Notes: generated from the sequence alone by a model not told the origin. Shown: positions 1-52,100, numbered from the stretch's first letter. The stretch: DNA of 64,000 nucleotides from Phoronis australis (GCA_002633005.1 NMRA01000010.1:1522982-1586981); one strand, 5' to 3'. Numbers and translations are program-made.

Positions 1-46
1 TTGTATCCCATGTTTTCACTTTGTTTTTTTCTGATCTCAGACTTAC

Positions 47-226
47 CCGCTGCCTTCTCAACTCTTTGCACAGGTACTGGTACTTTCCAGGAAACGTGTT
101 CCATCATCCGCCCGAAGTCAATTTCACAATCGAACCCATTTTCAGAAAACTTAACTTTGGATTCTCTCTTTGAGTAAGCCTGCTCAATCTTCAAATTTGA
201 CATACTCGAATAAAGCGCCCATTCTT
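47..226 (-). CDS. Gene A exon: WWE domain
   Basis: Translates EWALYSSMSNLKIEQAYSKRESKVKFSENGFDCEIDFGRMMEHVSWKVPVPVQRVEK and follows VQWIFEEN of the previous exon (W..W..E pattern); ttttgcag acceptor, GTAAGT donor. Confidence 0.85.
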
Positions 227-3200
227 CTGCAAAAAAATATAAAATGGTGTCAATTTGTAACCGCTGTGATGTTTTTAGACCCTAGACCCAGCAGTGCTTA
301 GAAACAATATCAGTAAAATAACTCGAACAAACTACAGCTTTAGAAATTACCCAGTTGACATATATGTACATTATTGATATACTTTACATGAAAAGTTAAG
401 CCAGATTGGTAAATTGATCCAGCTAGAAACTGAACATACGATTTTCCTCAAATATCCATTGAACATGTTTTGCTAATAATTCCGCCTGTTCTTCCAAAAT
501 GTTACGTTGATCTGCTGAATGTAAGATTTGTTTAATTTCGTCTTTAGCCTTTAAAACACATTCCGTTCGTCCTCGAATTCGTATACGGTGGATTCTTTCG
601 TTCAGGTCAATCCTCACATGATGCTTGAGGTCGATAGCCCTTGCAGTTGCAATCTGAAAAGAATTCTTGATTAGTGCCTTTCAAAAGAGTGCCCAATAAC
701 TCGAGATAGCCGTTTTCGTTAAAAAGAGGTTGACTTGCCAGTAGACTATAGTAACGAAACAGGACGCAGTGTGGCCTTATGGATTAAGTGCCAGTTTTCT
801 TTACCTAAGGTTTTGGGTTCGCTTCACACTGAAGCACATTGGCACTTCTCTAGCTTGAAGGTCAATGTTTATCATTTATCAATAAAGTATTTAAATGTTT
901 CAGGGAATCAGGGAAATGGGCCCACCTGAGCTGTCTGCGTACGTCTAGTACGTGTACCAGTAAAACTGCATGCAGCTTTTATTGTAAGGAAAGGTTACAG
1001 TTTCGAAACAATCCAATTGTTTATAATGACAATGACTAGTGAGAGATTTCTTAACATAGCTACTGTTATCGTGACTATAAGGCCACTTTTGAATATTCAA
1101 ATTCTCAGTAAGGTTTACCGTTGTTATTAAAACATATAATAAATTATGTTCTCCGTAAACACACCAACCTCGTCTTTAGTGAGCAAACGTATGGCTGCGT
1201 ATTCCTTGTCCAGACTTCCATCCATAACTACGTCACACAGCTCGTCTTTGCACAACTTTTTGATTTCTTCAATCGCTTTTGTAATGTCACTGTCCTTGCT
1301 CCCGAATATTCTTATATTGGTTTCCAACAATTGAGGAGTAGAATGGGGTACACCCTCTTCGTCGTCATCAGAACCAACTGTGGAGGTCCACGCCCCTATC
1401 AAGGAAAGAACATACACTGTAAAATGTAGGCTGTTTGAGACTTTAGGGTTAGAGAGTCAACACACGGTGGAAATGGGCCATACGATTATCTTTGGATCAG
1501 TGCTCATAAATTCGCAGAAAAAAAGATTATCACCTTGGCGACTTTAACAGTTTTGAATTTCAATTTATTATGAAGTGTTTATAATCAATAGCCCGGATTT
1601 AAAGATCGCTGCGGTTTCCGGGCATAGTTTTATTTCATTATTTTATTGTGTAAATTATTAAAAATGTTTAAAGCGAATGATCACAAAGATTGTTCAGCCC
1701 AATATATGAACAATCTGAACAGACAGAAAAACAGCCCCACACAATCAAAAATAAGGCTGAAAAAATGGGGTGTAAAAATAAACGAACTAGATGAATCGGC
1801 CTACAAGAAAAATGTCAAATTTTTTCCACCAATTATTTCCTCAAAAGCAAATGTAATACAAAGAAGTTGAAAGTTTTATCAGTTTCTGTTACACAATGCT
1901 TGCACATTCATATTACCTACCTCGAGAGGCAAAAGTTACCAATTCGGTGGTCTTTTTGAACAGTTTTCAAGCTACAAACTTCACACATTTTTGGGGGCCC
2001 ATGAGGATTTTCAAATACTACACTAATATGTACATTTGGGTTATTTTGTGCCTAAGAATCTTTTGCACACTAAATAACTACATGTAAATAGATGGGTAAG
2101 TAAGTAATTAATACCATTAGCATAACATGGGAAAAGTTAGTATACCCGAATATATCATAATTTATATTTCACTGCAGCGCAAACCATTTGAAACAAATCC
2201 ATAGATATGATAGACTATAGGGAACAAGCATATTTCGTTCTCAACATTTTGCTTTGTAAAAAGGATAAGATGTAAATTTGCATATGATGGATTTCACAAG
2301 ATTTTTCTAAAGTCTCCTCTACCCCCACACCTCTCGACCAAAACCCAATCGACCCAAGACTCCCTCGACCCACGACATGTGGCAATAGAGATGTTTTATT
2401 TGCGCTTTTTACGTATTTCATAATCTTATTACGTCGTTGAATGACTTTCCCATAAGACATACCTACACGTGAGTCTGCTCTGGATCAGGTCTGGTGATCG
2501 AAAACAGAAAGTGGCGTGAGAACGTGATCCGAAATAGCGGATTGTGTGCGTGCGATCGTTGTCACGGAAATAGTTCCAAGAGCTGCTACCAATGGCCCAG
2601 TTCTTCTAAACTTACATATAGGGAGAGATTACTTGAATGTATACAATTTCACATTTTTTGTTTGCTTTCTGTTTGCTTTCTGTTGTGTACTTCTTTAAAA
2701 TATACTCCATATAACGTTGAAGTACTTTTTACTGAACAGTTTGTTTTCTTCGAGCTGTATTTACTGATAAATTACATTTTTGTCGGCTCCTCGCACTTTC
2801 CGCCAAAAAAAGAATCTGCCATTCACTGAAGGGCAGACGAGACGATTACACTCTGCCGGGAACGACAGTTGTATCGTTAGTAAGTCTTTGATTTCATTCG
2901 GTCGCGTTGGTTTTTTCTGTTTATTTTTTGGCTTTCAAACTTGCCGAATCGGCTCTATTCGTTGCAAAAAAAGGGAAAAGTCAGCAGAGATCACGGGCAA
3001 CTCAATGGTCCTGCAAGTCAACGCTTGTTCTATGTTCAGATAGAGTCGAGCTTGTGTAGAATGGGTCGAGGGGTCGTGGGTTCAAGGGGTCGTAGTGTGT
3101 GGGAGTCGAAGTGGTGGAGGGGGTTTTAGAACAATCCGATTTCGCAGTACAGTATTCGTGCCATGGAGCTAAAAATTTTCAAACTACTTGAGCAAACACG

Positions 3201-6200
3201 AAATGGTTTTTGAGTAGGAAACACATTGAATTTGATGGATTTGGATGAATGAAATATGCACAAAACGAGTAGCGTGAAGTCCACAACATATCAAACATAC
3301 CCATCGACAAATCCAGATCGCTGTTACATGGATTGACAATTGCATCAGTGGCTTGCTTTGTTATGTCCCCTTGAAATACGCGCACTGCTAGGCCTCCGAT
3401 GGTAGCAGAGGTCGCTGCTGAAAACAAAAGACATCGTTGACGAGGCATGGAACGCGAATACTCGTGGAAACATCATTTAAAGAGATCGTTTATAACCTAA
3501 TTCTTGGGGATGCTGCAATAACTTAGAGTCATTCACTTCGTGTATTGCAAGAATTTCAAGAAAAAAAATGAGATCCACTGTTTTTGCAACACAGACAAAA
3601 TAAAAACTTTCATCCCAATACGGTTTTAAAAATCTCCGCCTGATGTCCCTACAATTGCATCACGGTCATTCTATGTTAAGACATCAAAGACAATATTCTT
3701 ATGGCCTTGTGGTCTGCGATTAACCTGACCACCCACCAGTTTCAATAGACTTTGTGTAGGTTTTTGACGTCTGATTGATATTTTCAAGTTTTTTGCACCC
3801 TGTGTAGCAGACTGTTGAAACTGCCCAATACCCACCTTGTGGTAGCATAGTGGCTCCAGCAAACGACGTCGAAGATGGCTGCCCGATTTTTGATTTAACT
3901 GCTTTAAATATCAGTTACTAGCCATAATGATTACAGTTTCGGAGGTAATAGTCACTTACAGGATTCTCGCATTTTGAGAACCAGTTTTCTACACTGAATA
4001 ACGGGCATCAAACTGGTTCCGTAAGTCACTGCAATTGCTGTTTTGGCGAGGATGAAACATTGTAAGGTACGAAGTAAGAGTTAATGAGAGCCAAGAAAGA
4101 AAAAGGGAAAAGATATAATACAAATCATACATTGCTCCACAATGGCCAGCGCCAGCCCACCTGCATTCTTCAATTTCCCATTTGCTGCATTCACGATCAC
4201 GTCCACTTTATGTTTGGTCATATCTCCTTGAATGACTTCGTCGCAAACATCATCTTCACCGAATACAATGATGCATTTGTTTTTCCTTTCCACAGTTTCC
4301 AAAAATGATTTTCCGCGTTGACAATTGAAGAATTCATCCATTCCGGGTTCAGCTATCTCGATGTTTTTACAAATAACTTTACACATCAAATTGCTTATTT
4401 TTCTTTGCGTCAAACCTACACCTTTGTTAGTTCCTTTTATAACAATTGATGTACTGTCAGCCACAAAGCAAATACTAACATGATGCGTCTTTAGCGATTC
4501 TTGAATTTGCACTACTCCTGTTTCGTTATACTGTTCCATGAAGCGGAATCTACCACTGCTCAAGCGGATTTTTCGTTCGTAAATTGTATTTGATTCGAAG
4601 AAATCTTGTACAACTTCAAGAACATTGGGCGTCACAGACCTTGTTCCAGCGATAGTAAGCTGAGTTAGGTCGCTGTGTTCCACGATTTCCAAACATCCTC
4701 GGTACTGTGTTAATTGCGATTCTTTGACACTTTTCCACTGGGAACTAGTAAGTAACGGTTTTGACTCGGCTTGTAAAGAGACCAAGGCTTCATGAAGCTC
4801 CCGACTCATTATCTGGGCTGCTTTTCGTGACACGTTCTTGTCAGACGCAAACACACTGATGTCTGTATCTGTGGCTGTCCATGAAGCCGCGACGTTTGAT
4901 GAACGGAACTGCGAATGTATGTATTTATGGCATTCCGGGTTTTTCAACAGGCGAAGAATTACTGGTGTTGAGACAACTTTCTCCGATATCAAGTTTCGAA
5001 GAATTTCGTACATGTCACTTTTTGCTTTGTTGACATCTAAAGGTATTCCAATGAACTGGACGTGCTTCTTCGTTACGTCTATCTCACACTTACAACCAGA
5101 CACGCCAAATTTCATTTCTTGCAAGAACAAAAGCTCAAAGTCTCTAAGTGTTGTCACAGTTTCCGTGACCTCTTGTGACTTTCGATTGAACTCCTCTTCC
5201 AATGTCTTTCTGTCTTCATTGACTTTCCTTAACACTTCGTCAACGATGCTGCGTACACCAGTCAATCGTATGGAGTGTCCTTCCTCGATAGTCTCAATAA
5301 GCACTTTTCCGTTCGCGTGGGACGACAGTCTTGTCACAAGATCAGTCCAAATGTGTTGGAGGATGTTAATGCTTTCAGTTTTGTAGTCCGCGAAAAAATT
5401 GACCACCGCTGTTTTGACAACATTTTCCCAAGCCATCTCCGCAAGTTGTTCAGAGCTTGATAGAAAGCAAGTCACGACAAGACTGTCTGCTGTGCTAGTC
5501 TCCCAATTTGCTCGACCGTGGTGTCTCCTTAACTCGTTGTCCAACAACTGACGACATTCCACACTAGAACAGACGAAGTTTACTAGAGAAACATCAAAAG
5601 GTCCCACGACAGCGTCATCTGGAATTCTGGCAACAGGCTTAGACGAGTCGTCGTCGGGATGTCTGAGTCCAAGTTGTTCGTAATACTCGCAGACCTTGAG
5701 AACGCATTTGCTTACTTTGTGTTTCTTCTCAATTACTCTTTGCACATCTGTAACAAACGTGAAACAGTGCAATATGCAGTTAACACAGTGCTCTATTTGG
5801 ACGGCCCAAATGAGATTTTGGAAAAGGTGACATTTTGAAAAAAGATCGTTGAATATTCTACACCTATCTCACAACATTTCAGGCCTAAAGCCAAATATAG
5901 GAAAGACTCTTTGTGTGTATTGGCGTAAAATCTTTAGCAATTCCCCGTTTATGCTCAAATATTGACCTTTCTTGCCTAATGTAAAGTTTTATGTTTTTGA
6001 GAATTTGCTTTAGTGTCGAATTATCTGAAGATCTCGCACTAAACTATAAGAAAAATAATGAAAATTGAAAGAGATATAAAGACCTGGTCTAGAAGATTAT
6101 TATTTCTTCTTTGCAGAATTACTGTAATGAAGTTTCTTTTGATACCTATGCTGGTTCATGTGCTCATGATTCTGCCATCGAAAGTTTTGGTTGTTGTGTG

Positions 6201-9200
6201 GAATGATGACAGAATAAAGAGAACTGAAATGGTGCAAATTCGGGACACTGATACGGCGGGAGAATTTCCATAGTAGCTCTACTATTTTAAGGGAAACGTA
6301 ACTGTTAATAAAAGAAAAGGGTCTTTTATAAGTGCTAATATAAGAAGGTGTTAATTTATGAATAGCTTGACTCGCACGTACTTTTTATGACTCACGCATG
6401 GTTTCTCTCCAACATTTTTGATTTCTGCTTGAAGTATGATTTTTGCATGACTTCCAAATTTCCCCAAAATGTTATGAATAAACTTATATGCTTACAAATA
6501 ACTGAAGGCACTTGCAAAAAAACAACGTGAGCGAAATTAGGAATTACAAATTAACGTTCAGGTTTCATAGGAATGGTGGAGGTAAATTTATGTTTGATCC
6601 CTTATCTTTACTGAAGATTCGAGATTAAAGTGCTAGAAGATGATCTCTCTTCTTCAAATTGCCGCCATTAACGACTTCCTGGTCAAAATTGGTGTCCAGC
6701 AGCCAGATCTTTGCGCGTATTCTAACAAAATGAGAGAGAATTTACCCATCTTTACTGGGATTGTAACGTGTCGGAAACTTTCCCTTCTGTTATCAGGGGC
6801 GGATCCAGGATTTTGAGTTAAGGGGGGCAGAGCAGATTATTAGCCAGGATTTTGCCCGTCAGACATTTTCAGCCCCGAACTGCCTGATGTAATATGGGAG
6901 AATTTTAGGGGGCCATAGGCCCCTTGGCCCCCCTCTAATTCAGCCACTGGTTATAAGTCAAAGGTTGTTTTCATGAACCCAAAACGTATGCTTATTCTCT
7001 CGTGAACGGATCGGCAAAGTACATGACTTGGATATCATAAATTAACTCAGTGTTTGTGAAAGTATCGCAGTCTCCGTCAAAGGCTCTGAAATATTATTAC
7101 GTCAACTGATATGTTTAGTTAAGAATTGTTACAACAGATAATTACGTAAATCTTGAACAAGCGTAGAAACAAAGACCTCAGACATTTAAGTCTTGTCTGA
7201 CCGCCACCTGTTGGCCACATCATTAGGTAACTATGTGGCCAGCCAAAACGTTGCGTGCAGACCAAACCTAAAAGTGCTTGTGAATTCTTACAATACGTTC
7301 AAATTAAAAATGCGTTGATGTCGGAAACCATGAATTCGTAAAATTCAATAGATTTTCCTCTTTGTTTCTTTTGTTTCTTTTATTATTCGTTAATGTTACA
7401 TTTAGTGCCTGGTCGCGAACTGTGCTTGAGTGCTTGTGCGAGTGCGCTCGCGTATATGGGATTGTGTCAAATAATCTCCCCCATTTGAATATGATACCGA
7501 TGCCAATAAACAATTAAAAACAGAACGTAAAATGCAATAAGGTATTAAAGGAACCCCCAAAACAAGGAGTACCTGGGTACACGCATTTTCGAATGACTGT
7601 TAGACATACAAATAGACTATTACGCGGCGAAAACTTATGTCCGTCGGATTTGGAGGAATTGACACCCCGAGAAGGCGCTGAATGCCACAAGAAACAACTG
7701 CGAAGAACACTAATAATTAACGTATCCCTCCAATTTTAGCCTAAACACGAGACAGCTACCGGCCAGTTATCTCGATTCGGCGACCAAATACGATGGGGAT
7801 GGCGACGTTCTTCATATATACAGAAGACGCTCGAGTGTTTGTTTTGGTTGCACGACACAGCATAGGGATGATCGAGTCACGCACAACCAAAGTTCAATGA
7901 TTCTGTTTTCTTTTGCGGGCTTTGTAGAGTTTAGGGCACCGTATGTGGGTTAAACAAGAACATTCGACGATAACAATACATTTGTACCTTTAATGTTCTT
8001 CTGCCACATTCATAATACAAACCTGTATGATCAGCAAACGTAATCACTGCCACTTTTCCATTTCCGTGAATGACCACTTTCTCTACCTCTCCACCCCCGC
8101 TTTTCTTTTTGTTTTCAAAGTAATTCTCCAGAGTATCATCTGTACAGTTGGGAGGCAGGTCGTGGACTTGTATGGAGTCTGTCAGATATACTGGCTCGAT
8201 CTGAAGAACCGACTTCTGTAGAGGTTTCTTGGTGCAAGCTTCGCGTAGCTTATGGATGTCTGCAGGTGATAATGAAGCAAGCTTTTATGGAATGCAAACG
8301 TTTTGTTTTGAGAACGCATGGAAATGTTTTAGCTATAATGCAAAGTTGTATACTAAATACATAATATATAGGTTTGGGCCGATGTGAGTAAAAAATGAGA
8401 AGATAAAATCTGAAATGAAATTGGTGTCATTAAAATTTGCACTCTTCTTTGTGTAAACTAGATTATTTACCGAAGTTAGAAAAATCGGCGTTCTACCGTT
8501 ATTCTGCCGCGAAAATTGTAGGGCAATCTTTTGTGTCGTCTTTCGGCGCCATGAAATAGTGTGCCACGTATTGGCTACTGCCGTTTTCTCCGACTCTTCA
8601 GTCTACTGTTGTTCTTTCATGAGACTGCGTACATGTTGCAACAAATAGTCGGAACTGGTTTTTAAAATTTTTCTTTCACCAAACCGAATTTCAGAGCAAA
8701 ATTTGCTGTCTTCATTTCCCGAGAGATGTCGCAAAAATTAAGGAAATAGCAAGCGTCCGTGTCACGAGCGTACTCTTTTCATGCGACATGCTTTACTTCG
8801 TTACCGTTGTAATGCGCGTTTATTATGTAAAAGTAGTTCTTACATATTAAACTCACAATACGACCAGTATATCATGACCATACTATCACGCGTATAGGAT
8901 AAAAACGTTAAACCCAGAAAGAAATAATTATATACAGGCTGTATACTATAAAACAATGACTTATTTAAGCAAAACATAATATTGATCAAAATAACGAAAG
9001 TAAAGACAACAAAAAATAGAACAAAATCATACAGTAAGAAAGGAAAACATATTAACTAGAAGCATTCATAACACTTTAACAAGAGAATGATATAGTCGGT
9101 GGGCCAGATTTTGTAGGGCCTCTAGAAAATGGTTTTTGTGAGTACTTTAGGGGGGCAATTTTATTTTGGTGTTTTTTAGTTCATTTATTAGAGTGTTTTC

Positions 9201-12200
9201 AAAATCTAAAAAGTTCCCACATATAAAGTTGCACATTTTTGAGAAATTTGAGTTTGAAGTTACCTAATAATCAACAAAGAGCTTAGTAAACTTATATTTG
9301 TAAAAACAACAGTTTTGGTGACTTTTTTGTAAAACAAGTAATATGGTCCCATCAGTGCCATTGTATTGAACAATATTACACTCACATTACACGTTTTACT
9401 ATTGTAAATTAATTGTAAACAGTGAAATTTAAAAAACGTAAAGAGACACCTAGTGGCAAAAATGCAAACTAAGTATGAATGTTACTAGGAGCTTATTCCG
9501 GCATTGTCAGGCAACAAAAAGAACACAAAACACTTGAGACTGGGAAAAATTTGTGCCTCAATGACTAAAACATTGACTAATGGTGTAAAATACAGCTTGT
9601 TTGCATAATACACCAGAAATATGTTATAGTACAAAAACAATATAGTTGAATGATCTCTGTGAATGTGCACAAAGACTGTATTAAAATAGATTATTCTGAC
9701 AGCGTTTATTAAGCAGTATGAGACAAATACATGACAATGATCAAAGTATGTACTTTCTATGACTTAATCAACAAATAAAATTAACTTTTTAATACAAAAA
9801 AGGAAATAACGGGGTTGGAGGTCTATTTAGGGTTGGCCTGTCAAAGAACTATCCAATGTTATGCAGTCAGTGTTGCTGATGTTACTACAGTTGTCACAGC
9901 TGCACATTTCTGTACAGTTTGACCCAGCATTGCAGCACAAACTCAGTTTCCCAGCACACATGTTCTTTTTGCACTTGCAGCGTTCATCGTTTAGTACTGT
10001 CAATGGAGATGCGGTCATTGCCATACATATTAACTGCAAAGCTCCACCGCCAAGGAGCCAACTATGGTCGATTAGAGAGGGTACAGCACTGCACACTGGT
10101 GATTAGCCCGCAGGCAATGAAGGGTCAAACACTAAGTCCTTGTTTGGAGGCGGGCACTATTTGGGCAAACGTTTGATTCAAAATATGTTACAATGGGCTG
10201 TGTTAATTAGAGTCAGCAAGTGAATTATTGAACACTAGCCTCAATTCACTTTCGTATCTCTTAGTCAGGCACAAACTACAACAGTGAGTAGCTTCAACAA
10301 TATTTCTTAAGATTGCCTGTCCAAATAACTTCATGCACACCAGCTTTCTGAAGAACAGCTTCAAAGTCTTGCTTTATTTTTGAAAGGCAAATGACATCTC
10401 CATGTGCTAGAAGCTTTGATTCAATGAACTCCAAACAAAACTGTAGAAAAACATCTCTGAAAACTGGGGATTCGTCACTCTCCACAATCTTTGTCTTTCT
10501 CTTTTTTACAGCATGATGATCTGTGGTACTTGGCTTCTAAGACACAAGGTCTTTATCTTTGAATTTCATTTGCATATTCAGGGCTCTGGACTGAGCTGTT
10601 GCTTGCGATACAAGTCCAACTGAAAAAAACCCGAACTGTTAACACTAATTTAACATTCAACTATGAGTGAGTTGGCATGCAACTTTTTCAGACGGACGTA
10701 TCAGGAGCTGATCCACCACCAGCCTAACAAATTTACATGCCGTTTGATCTGTAGCCTAATAATGTTGATCGTCTAATAATTAGATCAGTAGATGCAGCTG
10801 AAAATAAATCAGCTGATATACCTGTGCAGTGATTGAAATTTAATTTTTTTAAAAATCAGATTCTCAAACCATAGTCAATCGATTTACACTTAAGGTAATC
10901 GACGTTTGACGAAATGGACAGTGGCTTCCATCGTCCTCAAATTTCGACGGCGACGATGGCCACTTAGGCACTTTAATTTAATTATCATTGCAGCTGCTAC
11001 CTAAGTAATTAATGTTTACAAAAAATTGAGACTACGGCAGGGGATGACGGCCACTTGGGCATGTTGTTTGCAACTATCTACTCCATTTAACCTTCTCAAA
11101 AATTTTAGACTTAAAGTGCTTTAAAATCACACCCACAGTATAACGCCATAGGATTATCCCTTAGCGCAAGCAGTGTCGATGTGGCAACTGAATGGAGTGT
11201 TCGAAAAACAGGATTGCAGGAGTATTTGTTTAAACTGGGAACAAATGAAAACATTAACGACCTCCTCAGAGGCATCTCTCTACGCGGTACTTCTAAACTT
11301 ATAGGAACATAATTTGCCGAAAAGTATCCGGCATATGAAGTACCTATAGTATGATCATCGTCTCTACTGGGTCAGCAGTATTGTCTAAGGCCTAGGCAGT
11401 CAAGGGGCTGAACAAGTTAAAAAACAACTGGTGATAATACTGAATCACACGTGGAAAACACCAAAATGTATTTTTAAAAAACACGTACCTGTTTTTGAAA
11501 GCTATACTTCTTTCTCTTTCTTGAAATGTGGCCCATAATGTACTTTTCCTGCTAACAAATGATGCACTCATGTTTCAGAATGTTCCTATCTTGTTCAGGT
11601 TAATTGGGTGTTTCAGATTTTGGAAGTGATTGATTTTCTTGGGAAATCTTGGATAACATCTGTATCACTTTCAGCAACTTCAGCTTTAGTACTACTGTTG
11701 GTGCCTTGAAACGTTGCTATGCCGTTCTATGTCCTTTCAATTTTCTGGTCTGACACTTGGTATTCTAGTCTATAGCACTCAGCAGTATACTGTGTAGGCT
11801 ACCAGGGCATGCAGCTGTTTTCTGCACAAACGTTTGTGACACCTCTTCTTCTTTTTGATCTACTGATCTACAGAGTTCCACAGTCAATCAGCTTTCGTCA
11901 GGAAGCTTTCCTAAGCTTCTTTAGGCTCTGACATCACAATTTTGTGCTGTTTGATAAACCTTGAATTATACAGACATCACATTCCATGGGAGCAGCCATA
12001 TTGAAGTAACTAAGCACAACAATACAATCTGGCTCTCTGATTGGTCAATTCACTAGAAAAGCGCCATCAAGTGGCAGGAATATGCATCATATTTTGTGCA
12101 ACAAAAACACCTTTTTTTAAAAAAATGTGCAAGTGTAGACGTGGGAACTTTTTGGAATTTGATTTTTAGTTATATTATCTAGCCACATAGAAAAAACTAG

Positions 12201-15200
12201 GTTGCCCCCCCAAAGTACTCACAAGGGTGAACGCTATGAGATTTGGCCCACTGACTAATATACAAGAACGTTAAACAAATCAAAATGCTCATCTTAGATA
12301 TTAATGCACGTCCCTATTAGAACATTCAAAAAGAAAATCACTAACAGTCGTGATTTAAATCATGACAACCATTTAGTAGAAAACTGGTTGTTTTTCCATG
12401 TCTATTACTAACATTTTGAAAATGTGACCAGATACATTTATGATTGTTGGATTGCAGGTTGCGAAAGGGCTGTTCGCGCTCAGCATTATAAACGGGGCAT
12501 GAGAGCAAGTAGTGAGTATCACTATTAATTGCACCTCAGGTACATTTATTAGAAAAAATGACATTAAAGTTTTGGTGGAACTTTTGTGAATTGAGATACA
12601 ACCCCGCTCGCAATTGGATTTATTTTTCACCCAATGAAAATAATTTAGTAGTAGAAGGACGTGTGAGAATGTCACCTTTAAGAAATGATATAATACAAAT
12701 TTTAAACTTGACAATGATTGGTTCACTTTAAGTTCCAATAGTGAACAATTCCCTAAGAGCAAACCAGCAACTATGGAGATTTCCTAAATGATTCAAATAT
12801 TGACACAGAATTGTTATTTACCAGTGGTTCTGAGATCAGTGGCGGATTTAGGGGAGCATGAAACCCCTAAAATTTTCCCAGATTCCATTTGGAAGTTCGG
12901 GCGTGCGAATATCTGACGGGCAAAATCCTGGCTAATACTCTGCCATGCCCCCCAACTGAAAATCCTTGATCCGCCCCTGGAGATCCCATGCTTATTGATA
13001 GAAGATGTATCTCGTTTATACCGATATATAATAGCTTTTTTCATGTATAATTAATTTCGTGTATTACTTGATATAAACAGATATATACCTGCTCATCAGA
13101 AGCACTGACTTCTGTAAAGGTTTCTTGGTGCAAGTTTGAAGTAGCTTGGAGTTGTCTGCACGTGCTAATGAAGCAAGTTAAAATAGCGTGCATATTGCAC
13201 TTGTGGCTGTCCAATGTTAGTGTCATACGCTAAGAATAATATCTCGTAGTGATTTACATAGGAACAAAATAGTAATGTTAAGAATGAGTGTATTGCGTTT
13301 GTTCATACCAGTGTCTACCAATCCTCGTTGTGCAATTTACGGCTAAAGAAGACCAGAGTGTAAATAGCGGCAATTAAAAGGCATTCACTTACATGTATTT
13401 CGGAACAAACGAGTGCAACGTTCGTTACGTTGCAACAAAATTCACCACTGTACGAAGTCAAAGCGTGTTCCATCAGTGATTCCCGATTCACAGGTACATT
13501 CCACAGAGCCATTACACTGCACTTCATTGAACAAGTGCGTGAACTCGTATCCACCAGACCAACACAAGTGTCGTCAAAAGAACACATTAGTGTTACTTTG
13601 CGCCTTTGGTACTTCTTTTGTGTTAATTCACAAAAAAGTAAATAACAAAAGTAACAGGCACAAGAAATTGTTGATTTTTTTCAGCGTGTTAAGTTATAGC
13701 TAAAAGCCTACCGCGGTTTTCATAGAAATTATGTAACTTCTTCAACGAAATTTTTCGAAAGTTTTGCAGCTCTTGCGATGTCTTGCTTGACTGGAACATT
13801 GCACGTTAGTGGCCTTGGTCAGGCACGATAGTATGCACTCATACGATGCAAGTTCAAATTACGTATCGTCACTCAAATAGTTTCAATGAAAGATTGTGAA
13901 ATTGATAATAACGGTTGATTCTATCTATGCCTCCGACTCAAATTGAGTTTCAAACACTTCCATACAAAACCGAAACGCAACATTCGTCTTACCTGGAACC
14001 TGTTCAAAAAGCACAATCCCCAATCCGGGCTTTTCTCCATAGCGAATAGCATCGACGTCACACCGAGTATGATTTCCAATGTAGTAAAACAGAAGTTCAT
14101 GGCTAATGTCTTCGGGAATGTTACTGACCACCACTTTATAGGGGTCCAAAGGTAACTTCTTTTTCGGTTTGTGCGGTTGGACAAGCTCTACGTCAATGGG
14201 AGTTTTATTCAGCTGCAGGGATAAACGGTTCTGGTAGACCCTGTCCGCGGCTGAAACAGCACAGCTGGTCATAAATGAGATTTGTAAGAGCAAAAACATC
14301 CTAATGAAATCAAACTAACTGACTACCTACATAATATACGTTCAATTTACGTTAAGTCCAATAAAGCCCATTTAAGGAAATGTTTTCAAAGATCTACCTG
14401 ATGAGTCAGCAAACGTCACCAATGCAGTTTGCTTGGCTTCATCTATCTCAATCTTGTCGATTTCTCCGCCACCAGATTTGCGCCTGTTTTGGAAAAAATT
14501 CTCTAGGAGATCATGAGACGTATCCTTGGGCAGACCTCTGACTCTAATTGTTGTTGCAGGTTGCGCTTGGTCTGGGTGTTCAGACTGCATCACTGAGGTT
14601 GCACAAGTGTGGGCTTCGTTCCGTCCGGCGTCGCTTGCAACAGCGACAATCAATTCTGCGGAATCTAGTTTAAGGTTTTTCTTCCTCAAAATGCGCATTG
14701 CGTCTGAAACAAAAAAAACGAAACTATTACACGATACGTTGTAATTGCGAAGTGATTTTATTGACTTATTGCTGATCAATAGTAACCCAAGTATTACATG
14801 AAAACGCATTCTCTACAAAAACAGTTAGCTTAAGAGGGACTTCCCTTAATTAGTTTTTTTTAATTCTGTGAATGAGAGGTCCATGCTACAAACTGTGACT
14901 CATGTACACTTAAACGTACCATCTGACTTCTGGAACACAATTCTGTAGGTCCTTGTTTCAACATCTTCAAGAAGTTTCATTGAAAGAAGTGGGCCACCTC
15001 GAGATTTATTCTTGTCTTCAAAGAAATGTTTGATTATCTTTTCAGAAGATGATGGTTTAAAGCCAGAAACATCTAGAGCAAGTCCAGCTTCAGATGAAAT
15101 CGGTTCCACGGAAACGTCTGGACAGCATACGTTTACGGTAACAACCGACCGATCAACCATCAACTCCGGGGTGGCAGCAACCCTTTCAGCAACTGGTTGA

Positions 15201-18200
15201 AAAAACAAAGATCAGAGGTATAATAGAATCATATGCACGAGCATCACATCTTACCCATGAACCACTTATGAACCTATGAATCACGCATAGGAGCCCAAAA
15301 ATCGTGCATACAAACAAAAATCATAAGCACAAACCACAAAAATATACATACGACCACAAAGTCATACACACGAGCATCCAATCACATGAAGGAACATTTC
15401 ATTGTTTATTGGTGCATGCATTTGCTTCCACACCTGAGTGTTGGGTCCGCATGCATGACTCGTATGCATCATTCATAAGTTCGTGAGTGGTTCGTGCGAA
15501 TGATTTCGATGCTCGTTCGTATGATATTATGATACCCCTAAAGATCTTCAATTTTGAAAGGAAAGAATTACAAAGTGTCATGTGAACAACGTTCAAGTAA
15601 ATTAGAACTCAAATATCGAGAACAGTGCTGTAGTGGGGGGTAGGTGCATTTAGGCGCAGCCAACCGCTTTTTGGCATTTGAACGTAGCGCCTACGCACCG
15701 CAAGTTACGTTCAGTGCTGTAGGTGATATGTTGGGCTCTGGGCGTCTACTTACCTCTAATTTTACCCTTACAGCAGTGTTCGAGAACAAGAAGAATTGAA
15801 ACAATATCCTTACCTTCCACTGATCCATAATCAATAACAGCTACTGTTCTTTGTTCATTTACCCGGATACTTAAAATTTCGCCTCCACCACACCTTTTTG
15901 GGCTCTCAAAGAAAAGTTCCAACGTTTCATTTGATGTTTCAGAATTAAAGTTGGTCACGCGAATTGCGGTCATGGAAAATTGCTCTGTCTTCTGGTTTTC
16001 TCCGACAAACGAACACTCTTGATATTCTGAACACATTTGCTCAGTCTCGCTTTCAGCATCTGGACTGCATTGAATAACAGTGAGTGAGGCATTCGACAAC
16101 ACGTGATCCTTTTTAGCAGCAACCCTTTGGGCAACTACAACGAACATTTTCAAAAATTTAGATTAAATCAATAAACCGCATAAGATGTATATTTTGATGA
16201 TCAATGTATATATGTTCAGAATTCGATAGGATATGTTCGACAGCAACTTTGAAATCACATATACAATGATGAGTATTTTATATTATTCCCTTTTATCAAT
16301 AAAAAATTCGCAATGTACGTGGTTAGAAACACAAGACTAGATATCATGTAGTTAGCGCTCAGTGTTTTGCAAATAAGCGTGCAAAATACAATGCAGAACT
16401 CTAGTTACAAAATGCTGTTAACAACAGTGTTTTTGCCGTATGTAACAAAACAATTTGCTTTAAAGTCGGAAGTAGAAATGGATTATTCGTGCTATTCCTT
16501 ATTTAACATCTATGCAGTTTTAACTTCTTGTTGGCCAACAAAATAAAACATGGAATGACTGGCGTACAGGCACGGTATCAGTACTTCCGTTGCATACACG
16601 GTACGGCCACTCGGATCTCAAATCGAAACCTATTGTACTAAATAAATGCATTTATACAAAAAAGATAATTAGACAGTTCTCACAATCTACTGAGTATTTG
16701 TCGGCATGCGGAAACACTCATTGTCCTTTTTTGAGCTGTTTGAGTCTCACTACTAAGTCATTGCTTACTTTGATACACAGTGAATTGTAGTTGAATCCTC
16801 AATATTATTAAAATTAAGTTGTTTTCATGCAACACCCCGAATTTAAAGACTAAATCCTTTATCATTATGACTCAATTAAGAGTTCAGTATTTAGTTATAT
16901 ACTAAAAATGTCGTTAGTCAAAGAGAAGCTAGCACTAAAGAAAAAACGGTAGAAAAATACAACATCTGTGAGTACAGAACGAAACAAATGGATAAAACAT
17001 TTTGGAAACTTAGTTGAGTCCATATGTTAGACTGTTTCATGCAACCGGGCACTGTGGTCTCCCAACGGAAGGACGTGTAACGTGATATCCCTCCATCCGA
17101 ACTACTGACTTGCGCAAATGCATATATTTTGCACCTATATGGATATACAGATTTACGATACAAATGTTGATCATACATATTTGAGCAAACTGGTTAAGCC
17201 TAAACAACCTCAAGTACATAATTGTAATTGTTCTTTCGGGCTAAAAAACGAAGTGTTTTCTGTCATTGACATGGACGCCCTATGTATTTAATTAAAACTT
17301 TTATTTGGCTAAAAATTCTTTCAAACCTTCCACTGAACCATAGTCGATCACTGCTACTGTCTGTTCTGCGTTCATCCTTATGGTTTTAACGTCGTCCCCT
17401 TTTGACCGCTTGAGGTTTTCAAAGTAGAGCTCCAACGACTCCAACGTTGTTCCTTCCCGCATTCCTGTCACAGAAACGGCTGTTTTCGGCTTTGGAGTAT
17501 AAACCTTCACCTTGATTCTTGTGCCTCCCAAAACCAGTTCGGTTTTGTTCAAAACGGAGTCAAGATCTTTAAACATGGAAAGAAAAAAACATTCATAATG
17601 TCAGACTGTTCACCATCTACAGATGAATACGTCAATTCGTTTCGAGTGGCATTGTCAGAGAAAGAATTATTTTTTTGGGATTAGGTTCAACGCGGAATCA
17701 AATACACATTCTCAACTGTGGCAGTCCGTGTCAGTAGAACTAAACCCCACTCGATATGGTCGAGTAATTTAAGTGCATTTAACTGATAGTGTAACGGGGC
17801 TTGATTTCAGTGAATGACAGACAGACAACTATAAAAATTTGAAAACTGTAATAAAATCACAAAAAACACGAGTCAACTGATTTTTTGTTTTATAGCTCAG
17901 ACCACAGCTAATAAGAAATCGTTTAATGGCCGGAAACCGAGTAGTCCTACAACTTTTACCGTTGTCTGCCAGACATTCACCAAATCACAACCTTTTGCAC
18001 ATTACGCTTAACATTCTCGACTAGATAAAATGTGGGAGTTGGTCCATTTTTAAAAGGGGCTACTGTTTTTGCGAATGTGGTGGTTTCAATTCAGCACTCC
18101 GTCTATTAACTAATCGACCTTACTTGAGTAGCCAACAGTTTCAACCAGGTTTACGTGTGATTCTTTGCAACAGAAAACGAGTCCTATAATAATAAGGACG

Positions 18201-19345
18201 CTTTTGAGACCGTTTCAAACAGAGTTAAATGTCTAATTCCATTTCTGATTAGTTAGCTGAAGAGGGGAAAACATACATGTAGCTTTAAATAATACCTTTG
18301 GGGTTGTCAAACTTTATGAATGCTTTGTGCTTATCAGCATCGAACTTGAAATCCTTGATCTCTCCTCCTCCTGATTTCTTTTTGTTTTCAAAAAACAGTT
18401 CAATCATTTCTGGAGAAGTTCCGTCTTTAAATCCAGTAATTTCCAGAATCCTTTTTTCACCTATTGGAAAACAACACTGACAACGCTTTAAGTGGTGTGA
18501 ATAGTTACGAACGTTCTCTCAGTAGCCGAAATTCTTCCACCAATCACTGGCACCGTTCTGACACGGATCCAAGGAGTTCAGGATTCCGGAACCCTTTGCT
18601 CGATCAGTTTTACAAGTGATGGAGTGCAAGAATATCGAGCCAACGACGGAATCAAGAATTGCCAATAACATCTCAGGACTATTCCCTTAAAGTTTAGGCT
18701 AACGGAAGACATTACAAAACGCTGGAGGTGTGCATTTAAGCATGCGTTTGGTTAGGTGCAGTTGAGACTTTAACCTAATCATAATGAGATGAATAAACAA
18801 AAATTACCTTCTGGGGTTATAAATCTGGGTGGTGGCGTCACGTTCTCAAGTACGGTGAAGAACGGAAAACCTAATGTCTTGTTGAATTTGAGCAGATATC
18901 ATACCTAACATGGAGGTCATTTTACAGCGAGTGTAATGGGTGCAGGATGGGGAGTAATTCAAAGAATCATCACAAGCACATACATGTACTTAGCAAAGCC
19001 CTCATGTCCTGGCAGGTTAAAAAATTAAGGAAATCTTGAGCTTTATTATCTATGAAAACAAAAGTAACTTCTTTCAACAGAAATAAATCCTTAAGTTTGC
19101 TTGCATCAATAAAAATGTCGTTTGTCAAGTTCCCATAATTAGAAATGTGCATAACTAAATTTATCGTAGATACCGAACTCGTACACCTATCTACATAACA
19201 CGCCATTGTTTACCTCCCAACACTTACCGTGTGATTCTTGCTCCGCTAATGCATCCCCATCTGATTTTGTAACACTGAAGTCCTCCATTTTATGTGGCCT
19301 ATCGCTCGCTTTACTAGTGCCAACTGCCTTTGCTGGGTAGTTCAT
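47..19345 (-). CDS. PARP14: Gene A: PARP14-like multidomain protein (7 RRM - KH array - macrodomain stubs - KH - WWE), 13 coding exons in window, 3' end off the left edge
   Basis: Phase-compatible GT-AG exons: 19345-19228, 18460-18296, 17566-17327, 16134-15814, 15192-14920, 14703-14398, 14250-13993, 8259-8023, 5747-4131, 3417-3301, 1395-1169, 653-440, 226-47 (4273 nt, about 1424 aa). Repeated 'LELxFENxKxSGGGEI' RRM motif typical of PARP10/14. The symbol marks family resemblance, not proven orthology, and the catalytic domain is not visible. Confidence 0.85.
440..653 (-). CDS. Gene A exon: last KH-like domain and start of WWE
   Basis: Overlaps ORF 423..617 (HRIRIRGRTECVLKAKDEIKQIL...LLAKHVQWIFEE); tttcag acceptor, GTATGT donor, phase 0 to 1. 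Confidence 0.85.
1169..1395 (-). CDS. Gene A exon: post-macro KH-like segment
   Basis: ORF 1127..1417 (TNIRIFGSKDSDITKAIEEIKKLC); tag acceptor, GTTGGT donor, phase 1 to 0. Confidence 0.8.
2299..3137. mobile_element. Non-autonomous TIR element (MULE-like MITE)
   Basis: Imperfect terminal inverted repeats (agatttttctaaa... / ...tttagaacaatcc) with subterminal TCGACCC repeats; near-identical 9-bp flanks GATTTCACA (2290-2298) and GATTTCGCA (3138-3146). Confidence 0.6.
3301..3417 (-). CDS. Gene A exon: N-terminal stub of a macrodomain
   Basis: SATSATIGGLAVRVFQGDITKQATDAIVNPCNSDLDLSM (GDIT..DAIVN motif); tttcag acceptor, GTATGT donor, 117 nt, phase 1-1. Confidence 0.85.
4131..5747 (-). CDS. Gene A large exon: tandem KH-like domains and start of macrodomain 1
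   Basis: ORF 4081..5772, ending QGDMTKHKVDVIVNAANGKLKNAGGLALAIVEQ; 1617 nt, phase 1-1; aligns by eye with the gene C exon starting at 62753. Confidence 0.9.
6794..6949. mobile_element. MITE with CAGGGGCGGAT/CAGTGGCGGAT termini and 5-bp TSD (hAT5-like)
   Basis: TIRs caggggcggatcc / aattcagccactg; TSD GTTAT on both sides; same family at 12837, about 23285, 43976 and 62095. Confidence 0.8.
8023..8259 (-). CDS. Gene A RRM exon (237 nt)
   Basis: TDSIQVHDLPPNCTDDTLENYFENKKKSGGGEVEKVVIHGNGKVAVITF; same length as gene C exon 58787-59023. Confidence 0.9.
9093..12257 (-). mobile_element. Decayed Academ (AcademX-type) DNA transposon in a gene A intron
   Basis: 5'-TAG...CTA-3' termini with long imperfect TIRs (tagtcggtgggccagat / atttggcccactgacta, plus tgtgagtacttt-gggggcaa blocks); 3-bp TSD ATA (9090-9092, 12258-12260); decayed Cys-rich C-terminus CKCKKNMC..CCNAGSNCTEMCSCDNCSN at 9827-10096. 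Confidence 0.8.
12837..12979. mobile_element. 5-bp-TSD MITE (same family as 6794)
   Basis: cagtggcggattt...atccgcccctg; TSD GAGAT on both sides. Confidence 0.8.
13081..13177 (-). pseudogene. Truncated, frameshifted duplicate of the 5' part of exon 8259-8023, with its acceptor
   Basis: gacttctgtaaaggtttcttggtgcaagtt...gtctgcacgtgctaatgaagcaag matches 8210-8281; 1-nt deletion; homology ends after about 75 exonic nt. Confidence 0.8.
13993..14250 (-). CDS. Gene A RRM exon (258 nt)
   Basis: ORF 13925..14299; same length as gene C exon 58280-58537. Confidence 0.9.
14398..14703 (-). CDS. Gene A RRM exon (306 nt)
   Basis: TIRVRGLPKDTSHDLLENFFQNRRKSGGGEIDKIEIDEAKQTALVTF; canonical splice sites. Confidence 0.9.
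14920..15192 (-). CDS. Gene A RRM exon (273 nt)
   Basis: ORF 14900..15208; same length as gene C exon 56191-56463. Confidence 0.9.
15814..16134 (-). CDS. Gene A RRM exon (321 nt)
   Basis: ORF 15746..16153; same length as gene C exon 55753-56073. Confidence 0.9.
17327..17566 (-). CDS. Gene A RRM exon (240 nt)
   Basis: ORF 17301..17576; same length and same GTTTGA donor as gene C exon 55224-55463. Confidence 0.9.
18296..18460 (-). CDS. Gene A first RRM exon (165 nt)
   Basis: KRILEITGFKDGTSPEMIELFFENKKKSGGGEIKDFKFDADKHKAFIKFDNPK; same length as gene C exon 54934-55098. Confidence 0.9.
19228..19345 (-). CDS. Gene A probable first coding exon
   Basis: Acceptor ccaccag before 19366; in-frame ATGs at 19345 and 19288 (MNYPAKAVG...KMEDFSVTKSDGDALAEQESH); GTAAGT donor in phase 1, matching the next exon. 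Confidence 0.6.
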
Positions 19346-26618: not shown

Positions 26619-43598
<16,980 letters not shown>

Positions 43599-43975
43599 GG
43601 CATCACTCACTGAAAAAGATATTTTGAAGGAACAAACTTTGCTGTAATGAACCACCAACAATTCACATATCTATATCAATGAGTGCTCCATTTAGGGGTT
43701 TACTTTTTAAACAGACTTCAAAAAGACTTTTCCAGGAATATACCTACGAGGACTGAGAGCACAACTCTTGCACTTACTTTATTCCAAATTATGTAACGTC
43801 ACAAGCTACTTATTCCTTAAATTTGCTGTAAATCATATTTCATTGTGTTAAAAGTATCAGCTTTCACCGACAGCCAGCTTCATTGCTCATTTAATAAAAT
43901 AATTCATCCTTTTATCTAGGCTCTCTAATAGAGGTATCTGTGTCAAGATAACATAAATTGACAAAGGAGTAGATA

Positions 43976-48927: not shown

Positions 48928-48984
48928 AAGGTGGTACTTCGATCTTCATCTCGCTGAAGCAGATTAGGTTCGAAGGTGTCGACA

Positions 48985-49192
48985 ATGTCGGAAGAAACCC
49001 GGCAATCTATCGACACTGGTGAACATGTATATGAGAATGCTGTGCTGGTCAGCAATATTCAAAATCTTTCTGAGGAGCAGTTAACAATCTACTTCCAGAG
49101 TGAGTCGAAAAGTGGAGGCGGGGAAGTCGCAGTGAACGGTTTCAGACGCTTACACGATGACTGCGCGGTTGTGATTTTTCGCGGAAACTGCA
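48985..49192 (+). CDS. Gene C exon 1 (extra N-terminal RRM)
   Basis: MSEETRQ...AVLVSNIQNLSEEQLTIYFQSESKSGGGEVAVNGFRRLHDDCAVVIF; GTGAGT donor, phase 1. Confidence 0.85.
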
Positions 49193-52100
49193 GTGAGTAG
49201 ACGGTGAAACTTTTTTAGTTTGTTTTTCTTTAGTTGATCAGATATAGGCTAGCATTGAAAGGGGAAAAGCTGTACATGGCAGCCTTGCCAGTCCTCGGTT
49301 GGATACTAGCGAATCTACTGAAACTTCGGTCGCCTATGTCCCGTTAGAACTGGGTAGTTGGTTGTTAAAAAGACGAAGTAGGGGAGCCGAGCTAATGTTA
49401 CCCTGGCGTCATGATCCAACATATTTGTCGCTAAGAGGTGGCGCTTCACATCAATCACGTTCACACCCGCTATCAGTGACGTAGCAGTGTGAGCCCTCTC
49501 GCTGGTTCCTACGTGCCTAGCCTGAGCCAGCACGCAAGTATCACGCAGTGGCACGCGCTTTAGCATTTTAGCATTGGTTGATGTAACCTCGACAGTCATT
49601 GGTTAGCTTTACAACGTCTCTGTTAAAAAGTGGCGCTAATTAAACAATGGATTTAGAGACAAAAGAAACATGGCGGCTAGGGCGAATACCAAGCGCCATC
49701 TATATGTCATAATTCTCTAATGAACGATCCTTAGTGGCGTCGCAGCAACACTGATGCGCTCACCGGCCAAGCCTTCGTATGAGGGGCTCGAATTTCTGGA
49801 CCTTTTGGTAACAAAACGGCGAGAGGACTAAAAAAAAAAACGGGACCACCACTGTGAATTGCGTGTCTGTGCTTGTTTAGTGAACTTTTGTCTCATTTTC
49901 TCGGACTTTTTGTCTCTCAGGGGCGGACCTTTTTGCCCACTTCGCCAAATGGGGGGGCTCCTTCAAGCCCCCCCCGAGCCCCCCCCCTGGGTGCGCGCAG
50001 GAGCAACTAAGTTGTTTCTGCAGTGATGTTTAATAGCCGCATGCTTGATCGAAGCACATACATGTGCAATAAACCCAGTGGCCCATTTAACCGGCGTGTT
50101 ATTCACCGTAACAGGACGGTATCGTAAACAAAAGATGTGCACTCCGAATAGGTGCAATCACAATTTCTAGGATTCACATTTCTTGAACATGACGAATTTT
50201 AAGTACCGATTTGTCTGTACAAACCACATATACACTTAAGTCCATCAGCCACTGAGTACTAGTTTGTTCGCGTAAAGCGCTGCCTAATGAGAATTCGACT
50301 AGCCCAATCACAAACGCCGGTGTAAAAAAAAATTCCCAAGGAAAGTTAAGTGATAACTGCGTGCTGGCTACTTGCCATATAGCAGCACGTAGGGACACAG
50401 CGAGTGTGAGCCCTGGGAACGTGGCCAGTCTTTTCACAATGCTAAAACCTCGGTAAAAAGCTCGACTTCGTGAGATTACGCTAGAGAATGCCCTTCATTA
50501 TAAATGAGAACACGTGATTTTGGCTGATTTTAGGTAGGTACTAGCGCATAGGTCCTAGCGTTACTCACTGAACGCACGTCAGGTTATCACGCCGTTTTGT
50601 TGCTTTACCTACGTCTATGGAAGTGCCGGGAAGAAGCATGCAATTTCAGATTGACAATTAATTTGATCAGTAAGGTGGCTGTGCACATAACTGTCACAAA
50701 CTGCTCCTGCAGGCTGCAGCTGTAAACTTAATATACGATCAAATAATGCTACCGAAATTTAAAGCACAATAAAACAAACATTTGTGTGCAATGATAATCT
50801 GACTCGTATTATACAATATGGTTAGCGTAAGAATTCGCAACATCTCGAATTTCCATTGTCCTCTGCAGTCTGACTTCGGGCAATATTGTAACAAATTTTG
50901 TATCTCTTGCGCTAATGCGTTTAACTTTTTTGACAGCAATTGCGTTGTAACGCCGTCTTAGGTAAGCTCAAGAATTACTTAAGGAATGACAAATATTCAG
51001 TCAATTCCCTTCTTACAGTTAGCTCTAAAATTCCGACATTTATTCTGAATGAGATCATTATATACTTGCAATCCACGGTCCTTTATTTCATGTTTATTCA
51101 AATTTTTAATAGTTGACATTCTACTGTTTGGTATCCATTATCATCTGTTGCTTGTTAAGCTGAAGTAAAATTGTGATTGTAGGTGTACTCATCATTTTTA
51201 TATTATCATAACTCACTGTAGTTGAAACTTAATTCTTGGTAAAAATGAGATTTCTAGTAAAAAGGCTACATTTGGCAGTACGTATACTTCCTGCCTTTAA
51301 CTTGGAAAATTGATGTCAGTGATGCAGGTGACAGAACGAGGATTGATGGAAATGATTAAAACAGTGTTTATTATCCTCTTTAACGTATGATCAGACCAGC
51401 TTTGCAACCATGCAGATGAAATACGATAAACACCTTATTGTTTGGGTTCCAAGCTCGGCTTAAACTGCAAAGCTTTTTTATTGTTGCAGTCCAACAGCGT
51501 GTTTTAGGCCGAGATCATGAGCTGTTCGGATATCGTCTGAAAGTAGAACCTTGTCCCAAGCTGCAGAGTGGCGCCTTGGTAAGTTACTTTTCTCATACGA
51601 TGGAACGTTTTGGTGTTCAACTATAAACCCTGTTTCTTGCAGGTCTTGAAAGTCTCAATTTGCAGTCACACACTATTTTCCCACTCTACCAATCACACCC
51701 ACATGCTTTGACTCATCCACACGGCCCATTTACTAACCACAATTATCTAACAAGCAAACTCTATAGTGTATACTCCAAAACAGCAACAATTAAGTTAAAA
51801 CTTGAAACTTTTCTGGCAAAGCACTATTGGTTGAGAGAACACATTGGTTTGTTTACGGACTAATTACAGGAGGCTCAGCCGACCTATAGCTTATGGGGAA
51901 AACCATTAGTTGGTGGACTTCCCTTTAACCAGCAACAGTTGGGAGGAAATTCATGGTCTAAGCCACCACCACAGATTCCCGTCACTAGCACTGACCTTTT
52001 GGGGGTCCATCACATGGTAGGATCATCTGACATGTCTCACAACGCACCAATCTTTGGTACCGCCCTAAGCTCCTGCAGCAATGTCCACTCTAAAGCAAAG

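Follow-up and report, generated by a model that had tools for sequence, protein, structure and literature searches.

A 64,000-nucleotide stretch of animal DNA from Phoronis australis (GCA_002633005.1 NMRA01000010.1:1522982-1586981; hereafter the window, counted from its first letter) carries three related genes, A, B and C. Gene A, which lies on the minus strand and extends from about 18.5 kb past position 1, is a copy of PARP14, an immune gene; its genome copy retains only the first exons of the first and third macrodomains (macro1 and macro3). The reading we favour, with a rough probability of 0.45, is that gene A, a PARP14 paralogue that is transcribed and in frame, functions as a writer without an eraser of its own. 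It likely encodes an RRM-KH-WWE-(ART) protein, the ART being predicted, which adds ADP-ribose without reading or erasing it. The body of macro3 has been lost from gene A; the loss of the macro1 body and of macro2 is supported by the assembly, and the absence of all three macrodomains from the expressed gene is highly probable.

The domain order of gene A is that of PARP14 (macroPARP), with N-terminal RRMs followed by a KH array and with KH8 followed by WWE, the latter in agreement with the RNA joints. Where PARP14 has three complete tandem macrodomains within a split KH, the genome copy of A has stubs of 36 and 35 aa, and its KH halves are separated by about 129 aa, compared with 605-767 in the 20 three-macro relatives. 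A macro hidden Markov model (HMM; 179 columns), built from relatives and run on 2834 six-frame segments of the whole window, matched gene A only at 4239-4129 (columns 11-48) and 3406-3299 (columns 3-38). The model is sensitive enough for exons of stub size, since it also picked up 52-aa pieces of gene B (E 1e-6 and 0.02). With separate macro1, macro2 and macro3 profiles, made from 18 three-macro proteins and placing 54 of 54 stubs correctly in a leave-one-out control, macro1 was the best match for the first stub (46.8 bits, the other profiles giving 20.3 and 26.1) and macro3 for the second (38.0 bits, against 26.7 and 23.5). These results bear out the initial annotation, in which macro1 stopped after about 35 aa at 4131, the exon at 3417-3301 began another macrodomain and the exon from 1395 was already the post-macro KH region. 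It had also seen no further macro exon in the introns; likewise, none was recovered in 1396-4130 by the HMM on either strand, or by tblastn with the macro regions of eight relatives (best intronic matches E 5.8 or worse), and a macro exon hidden in the 1905-bp intron is ruled out by a direct RNA joint.

The macro similarity ends at column 48 in most single-exon relatives that reach macro1, which makes 4131 the ancestral exon end, a boundary common to gene A and the PARP14-like proteins. The linker before macro1 is 10 aa long in gene A vs 23-104 aa in 105 of 107 relatives, and this shortening argues that the first strand of macro1 is gone as well. The remaining two, Batillaria models with a linker of 0, look like draft annotation artefacts and were set aside as parallels. 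The 36-aa start of a 175-aa macro fold cannot bind or hydrolyse ADP-ribose; of the two loops of a hydrolase-competent macro1, the genome copy of A has loop 1 and lacks the exon of loop 2.

The exon model was examined in three raw RNA runs (X5, X6 and X7) of one study, chosen by species label, about 18-19% of each run being used and joints being read on positions 1-4400. RNA lay on the sense strand over the gene A exons and was zero in unique intron bins. The 1905-bp intron is spliced out directly by joint 1394/3300 (8 reads in X5, 6 in X6). Further joints were found at 3417/3836 (3 and 4 reads), 653/1169 (3 and 5, plus 610/1165 with 6 and 4) and 226/440 (3 and 0); joints 1394/3300, 3417/3836, 653/1169 and 226/440 were all read as CT..AC. 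The RNA alleles of X5 and X6 differ from the assembly at many sites, and because the direct 3301-to-1395 splice comes from samples with such alleles, the loss of the macro3 body is common to haplotypes and is neither a single-haplotype quirk nor the assembly collapse that had been raised as an alternative. Joint 3417/3836 also brought out a mini-exon, with an RNA depth of 16 and 8 at 3852, the same level as the neighbouring exons; it reads as a low-complexity linker, probably the one preceding macro3. Of the two introns of 713 bp and 1.9 kb in the initial annotation, the second is the 1905-bp intron, and the first is really about 232 + 63 + 418 bp, the mini-exon having been missed. Similarly, of the two junctions it had proposed for checking, 3301-1395 was recovered; 4131-3417 is ruled out as the main junction, as no such joint is listed while 3836-to-3417 is.

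From the big exon to WWE, the gene A model comprises 805 codons without a stop, as the initial annotation had anticipated, and the mini-exon of 63 or 66 nt (phase 1-1) keeps the frame; its statement that all junctions are phase 1 does not hold, 1169/653 being phase 0. The in-frame exon loss it proposed is thus seen in RNA for macro3 and in the genome for macro1 and macro2. Within the window, the marks of a pseudogene (stops, frameshifts, unspliced RNA) were not found, and the earlier concern that gene A might be untranscribed or disrupted downstream gives way to a gene that is transcribed, spliced and open down to WWE. Two details of the RNA may be recorded here. At 4236-4238, RNA reads (1 in X5, 5 in X6) step back 3 nt at the shortened linker, an in-frame length variant. 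At 214-226, 611-653 and 1172-1277 there are two RNA haplotype classes, one of them locally too divergent to align, explained either by alleles that differ strongly or by a close paralogue missing from the assembly.

Table 1. Coordinates in the window of the exons, repeats and genes discussed in the text.
Feature	Coordinates	Strand	Evidence
WWE exon of gene A; gene runs on past window start	47-226	-	PF02825 29.4 bits (cut-off 21.1); RNA joint 226/440, 3 reads
KH8 exon of gene A	440-653	-	PF23254 E 5e-4, below cut-off; RNA joints 653/1169, 226/440
Exon of gene A: acidic linker, second half of split KH, start of KH8	1169-1395	-	RNA joints 1394/3300, 653/1169
MITE-like element (miniature inverted-repeat transposable element), 837 bp, in 1905-bp intron	2300-3136		Inverted arms 2300-2372 / 3136-3062; contig depth >2000
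Exon of gene A with 35-aa macro3 stub	3301-3417	-	Macro HMM, macro3 profile; RNA joints both sides
Mini-exon of gene A, 63 nt (66 nt if 3901 acceptor), phase 1-1, linker-like peptide	3836-3898	-	RNA joint 3417/3836; 5' end inferred
Short, very high-copy palindromic repeat in 232-bp intron	3944-4030		Thousands of reads, both strands
Macro1 stub, 36 aa, first strand missing, loop-1 motif present	4132-4239	-	HMM columns 11-48, E 6e-9
Big exon of gene A: RRM end, KH array to first half of split KH, shortened linker, macro1 stub	4131-5747	-	Sense RNA depth ~4-12 in X5/X6
Upstream RRM exons of gene A, seven open frames	8023-18518	-	Collinear with gene C, tblastx 51-71% identity per exon
Gene B, RRM-KH-macro-macro-RING-DTC (Deltex/DTX3L-like E3, two macrodomains)	31594-43670	-	Profile scans
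Gene C, PARP14-like paralogue of A	48958-64000	+	Window end cuts C before macro region

Gene A derives from PARP14, because macro remnants and a WWE are present. At least two genomic deletions may have removed phase-1-bounded exon blocks, one with the macro1 body and macro2 and the other with the macro3 body; the first strand of macro1 would have gone in a third deletion, a small one within an exon. Losing phase-1 blocks of the insertion would leave the reading frame intact and spare the two KH halves, which would then be joined by an unfolded insert of about 130 aa, much as PARP10 carries a non-macro insert. If the ART past position 1 is intact, gene A would write without reading or erasing. 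The PARP14 macrodomains are described as an insertion in the split KH, where PARP10 has UIMs (PMC10450202). As portrayed in that source, PARP10 resembles gene A as an RRM-KH-ART protein with a split KH free of macrodomains; unlike gene A, it has a UIM insert, three KH and no WWE. A PARP10 identity for gene A is ruled out by its WWE and by the macro stubs in the insert.

Several observations weigh against a functional eraser-less writer. The ART domain lies beyond window position 1, expression is low (depth 3-25 in X5 and X6, near zero to 3 in X7), the stubs have a recent, unremodelled look, and the sole macro-less full-span relative, from the hard clam, has a truncated ART. The 41 exonic differences listed from DNA and RNA alignments (2 of 41 from DNA only) comprise 27 nonsynonymous and 14 synonymous changes, a pN/pS of 0.55 (p=0.053 vs neutrality) that points to weak constraint. 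No joint from 4131 to any site is among those listed for X5 and X6, and at joint-to-depth rates of 0.2-0.4 both runs would miss it with a probability of 0.58-0.07, falling to 0.001 at a rate of 0.6. Finally, none of the contigs listed bridges 3950-4030, the X1 contig stopping at 3950.

The selection data bear on the first rival explanation, in which gene A is a decaying duplicate that is being eroded by deletions, owes its frame only to common phase-1 introns and no longer matters. The comparison of A with C that the initial annotation had suggested gave a dN/dS of 0.14 in 400 codons, synonymous sites being close to saturation (pS 0.73). Taken with the pN/pS, this value suggests that gene A was constrained through most of its history and is now weakly constrained or diversifying. 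Decay would fit the three separate deletions in the macro region, a pN/pS not clearly below 1, the low expression, the absence from gene A of a match to the first RRM exon of gene C, and the published birth and loss of PARP14/15 genes (PMC4038475). It fits less well with the 805 open codons and seven open upstream exon frames, the correct, stranded splicing, and the restriction of the deletions to the insert with both KH halves spared. There is also no stop among the 41 differences listed, a weak test, as about 2 would be expected under neutrality by our estimate, and no exonic frameshift is listed. Overall, we consider decay unlikely.

The second rival explanation holds that macro3 alone is lost, the region from 4131 to the mini-exon still containing the macro1 body and macro2 in an expressed allele or a near-identical copy that is absent from the assembly or its haplotype. 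The DNA contigs come from run X1, which is possibly the source of the assembly and hence not independent. Over 1285-2456, 3031-3386 and 3358-3950 they are identical to the window, and their only breaks fall at two repeats. The first is the MITE of about 840 bp reported by the initial annotation, whose terminal inverted repeats at 2300-3136 are imperfect and score 52 vs 42 for the best of 200 shuffles. The second is the palindromic repeat near the lost macro1/2 exons, whose unbridged, high-copy core is about 80 bp. A retained macro1 body would be in line with the break at 3950-4030 and with the missing 4131 joint, which is itself ambiguous, because counts split over two acceptors 3 nt apart, or repeat depth, may hide a joint. 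It would also agree with the two RNA haplotype classes, which differ by up to about 5%, and with a macro1 stub that scores like a normal macro1 start. The summed contig depth at 4163-4321 is 55-68 vs about 20-28 in single-contig stretches, and although depth is not a copy number, this region and the two haplotype classes may leave room for a near-identical second copy of A. Against this, the unbridged core looks like one compact copy, the mini-exon is as deep as its neighbours, and the shortened linker, without the first strand of macro1, is what most RNA reads show. Assembly collapse at 3950-4030 is unlikely, and the loss of macro3 only is, in our judgement, improbable.

Least probable of the rivals is a functional but non-catalytic gene A, retained for its RNA binding as a scaffold or decoy; its ART would be dead or truncated, and its KH8-WWE would bind the Deltex protein B. 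The partial ART of the macro-less clam relative, the description of human PARP9 as an ART-dead PARP14 derivative and the binding of KH8-WWE-ART to DTX3L KH2-3 (both PMC13224862) favour it; the ART of gene A, outside the window, speaks neither way.

The favoured reading, gene A as a writer without its own eraser, raises the question of erasing in trans. Gene B, which sits between A and C and is head-to-head with C, encodes an RRM, KH-like segments, two macrodomains, and a RING (PF13923) followed by a DTC (PF18102), the arrangement of a Deltex/DTX3L-type protein. Its macro1 is formed by 38884-38483 and 34352-34197, which score best to the macro1 profile (82.7 and 28.8 bits) and, read in frame across the intron, carry both catalytic loop motifs (loop 1 and loop 2). 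The hydrolase signature has been given as Asn/Gly in loop 1 and hydrophobic-aromatic residues in loop 2 (PMC10221186). By its sequence, gene B macro1 is of the hydrolase type, with putative activity. Human PARP9/DTX3L is reported to strip PARP14 marks via PARP9 macro1 (PMC11251020), and since it acts so on PARP14, erasing in trans has a precedent; by analogy, erasure of gene A marks by gene B is plausible. Gene C is possibly a full PARP14 and may supply the eraser equally well. That the locus splits the PARP14 cycle, with A a pure writer and with B (hydrolase macro1, reader macro, RING and DTC) binding A and erasing or ubiquitylating its marks, is doubtful. If true, such a split writer/eraser locus would be an independent invertebrate invention of the vertebrate PARP14-PARP9/DTX3L division, with the eraser wholly in trans; if gene B is the eraser, the PARP9/DTX3L logic would have arisen twice.

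The locus resembles the human PARP9/DTX3L-PARP14 locus in having a Deltex E3 head-to-head with a macroPARP-family gene, adjacent PARP14 copies and a hydrolase macro1 on the partner. Unlike in the human locus, the macrodomains here are fused into the Deltex protein, and no PARP9 was seen in the window. Gene B looks like PARP9-like macrodomains and DTX3L in one chain. Other macro-RING-DTC proteins include one crinoid protein and, as a lead only, an Atlas cluster (score 0.79) of 50 members, 70% of which have Macro; a search for longer relatives of the gene B RING region returned none.

Genes A and C are exon-for-exon paralogues in tblastx, and their big exons are 49% identical across 405 aa. Clustered tandem PARP14-like copies are known elsewhere, as with the clustered copies of amphioxus (PMC13224862). 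The relatives of the big exon are invertebrate proteins with 20-33% identity, and no close relative of gene A was found in protein sets, the best reaching 33% among the 150 listed. Names were checked for the first ten: nine, from hemichordate, mollusc, brachiopod and amphioxus, are called PARP14-like or PARP by a source or have an IL-4-pathway annotation. A metagenome contig matched in a 23-nt scan (L001) had no blastn similarity and was rejected as a chance match. Among the 150 listed, 35 relatives span the KH array to ART and have 0 (1), 1 (6), 2 (7), 3 (20) or 4 (1) macrodomains, some of the low counts possibly being annotation errors. Gene A shares its RRM array, KH array, split KH, KH8 and WWE with PARP14 (ARTD8) and invertebrate PARP14-like proteins (Haliotis XP_046555938.1, Lingula XP_023932230.1); it differs from PARP14 in that its genome copy is without a complete macrodomain and in its seven or more RRM-type exons. 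The macro-less clam relative, Mercenaria mercenaria LOC123565062 (XP_045215003.2 / XP_053393606.1), is PARP14-like, with a linker of 66 aa between the KH array and KH8-WWE. Unlike gene A, it has no macro stubs, and its ART is C-terminally truncated in both annotated isoforms of what is a RefSeq gene model only.

Losses of this kind are known in part. Macro1 activity is reported to have been lost at least three times in mammals, in bats, ruminants and carnivores (PMC10221186), and the gain and loss of PARP14/15 is on record, including an elephant PARP15 minus one macrodomain (PMC4038475). Like the mammalian PARP14s with an inactive macro1 and like PARP15, gene A would be a writer minus its own eraser, putatively in its case. 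Unlike in gene A, those losses came about by point changes or by lack of macro1, with the reader macros 2-3 retained, whereas in A whole exons of all three are gone. A literature search by title and abstract, covering few subscription papers, gave no match for a PARP14 without all three macrodomains by exon loss, or for a macro-Deltex fusion. With gene A, the turnover of macroPARP erasers, published for mammals as point changes, would come to include the loss of whole exons in an invertebrate. Gene A also offers a natural construct for studying what the PARP14 macrodomains do and whether the split KH can close in their absence. For now, it adds a further architecture to a family in which the number of macrodomains was already known to vary from 0 to 4.

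Further features were observed across the rest of the window. The gene A RRM exon at 8.0-8.3 kb has an RNA depth of 3-5, and a possible first coding exon of gene A, with an ATG and a phase-1 donor, lies at 19228-19344 on the minus strand. The gene C RRM exon without a match in gene A is at 48985-49197. At 13083-13177, inside an upstream intron of gene A, there is a 96-bp duplicate (82%) of part of an RRM exon, 8186-8281. Fragments with open frames that we take to be retroelement-like occur at 29000-30250, as an inverted pair 87% alike, and at 37295-37933. Two arrays of long, diverged tandem repeats (offset about 385-420 bp, 70-75% alike) are located at 26980-28224 and 60329-61687.

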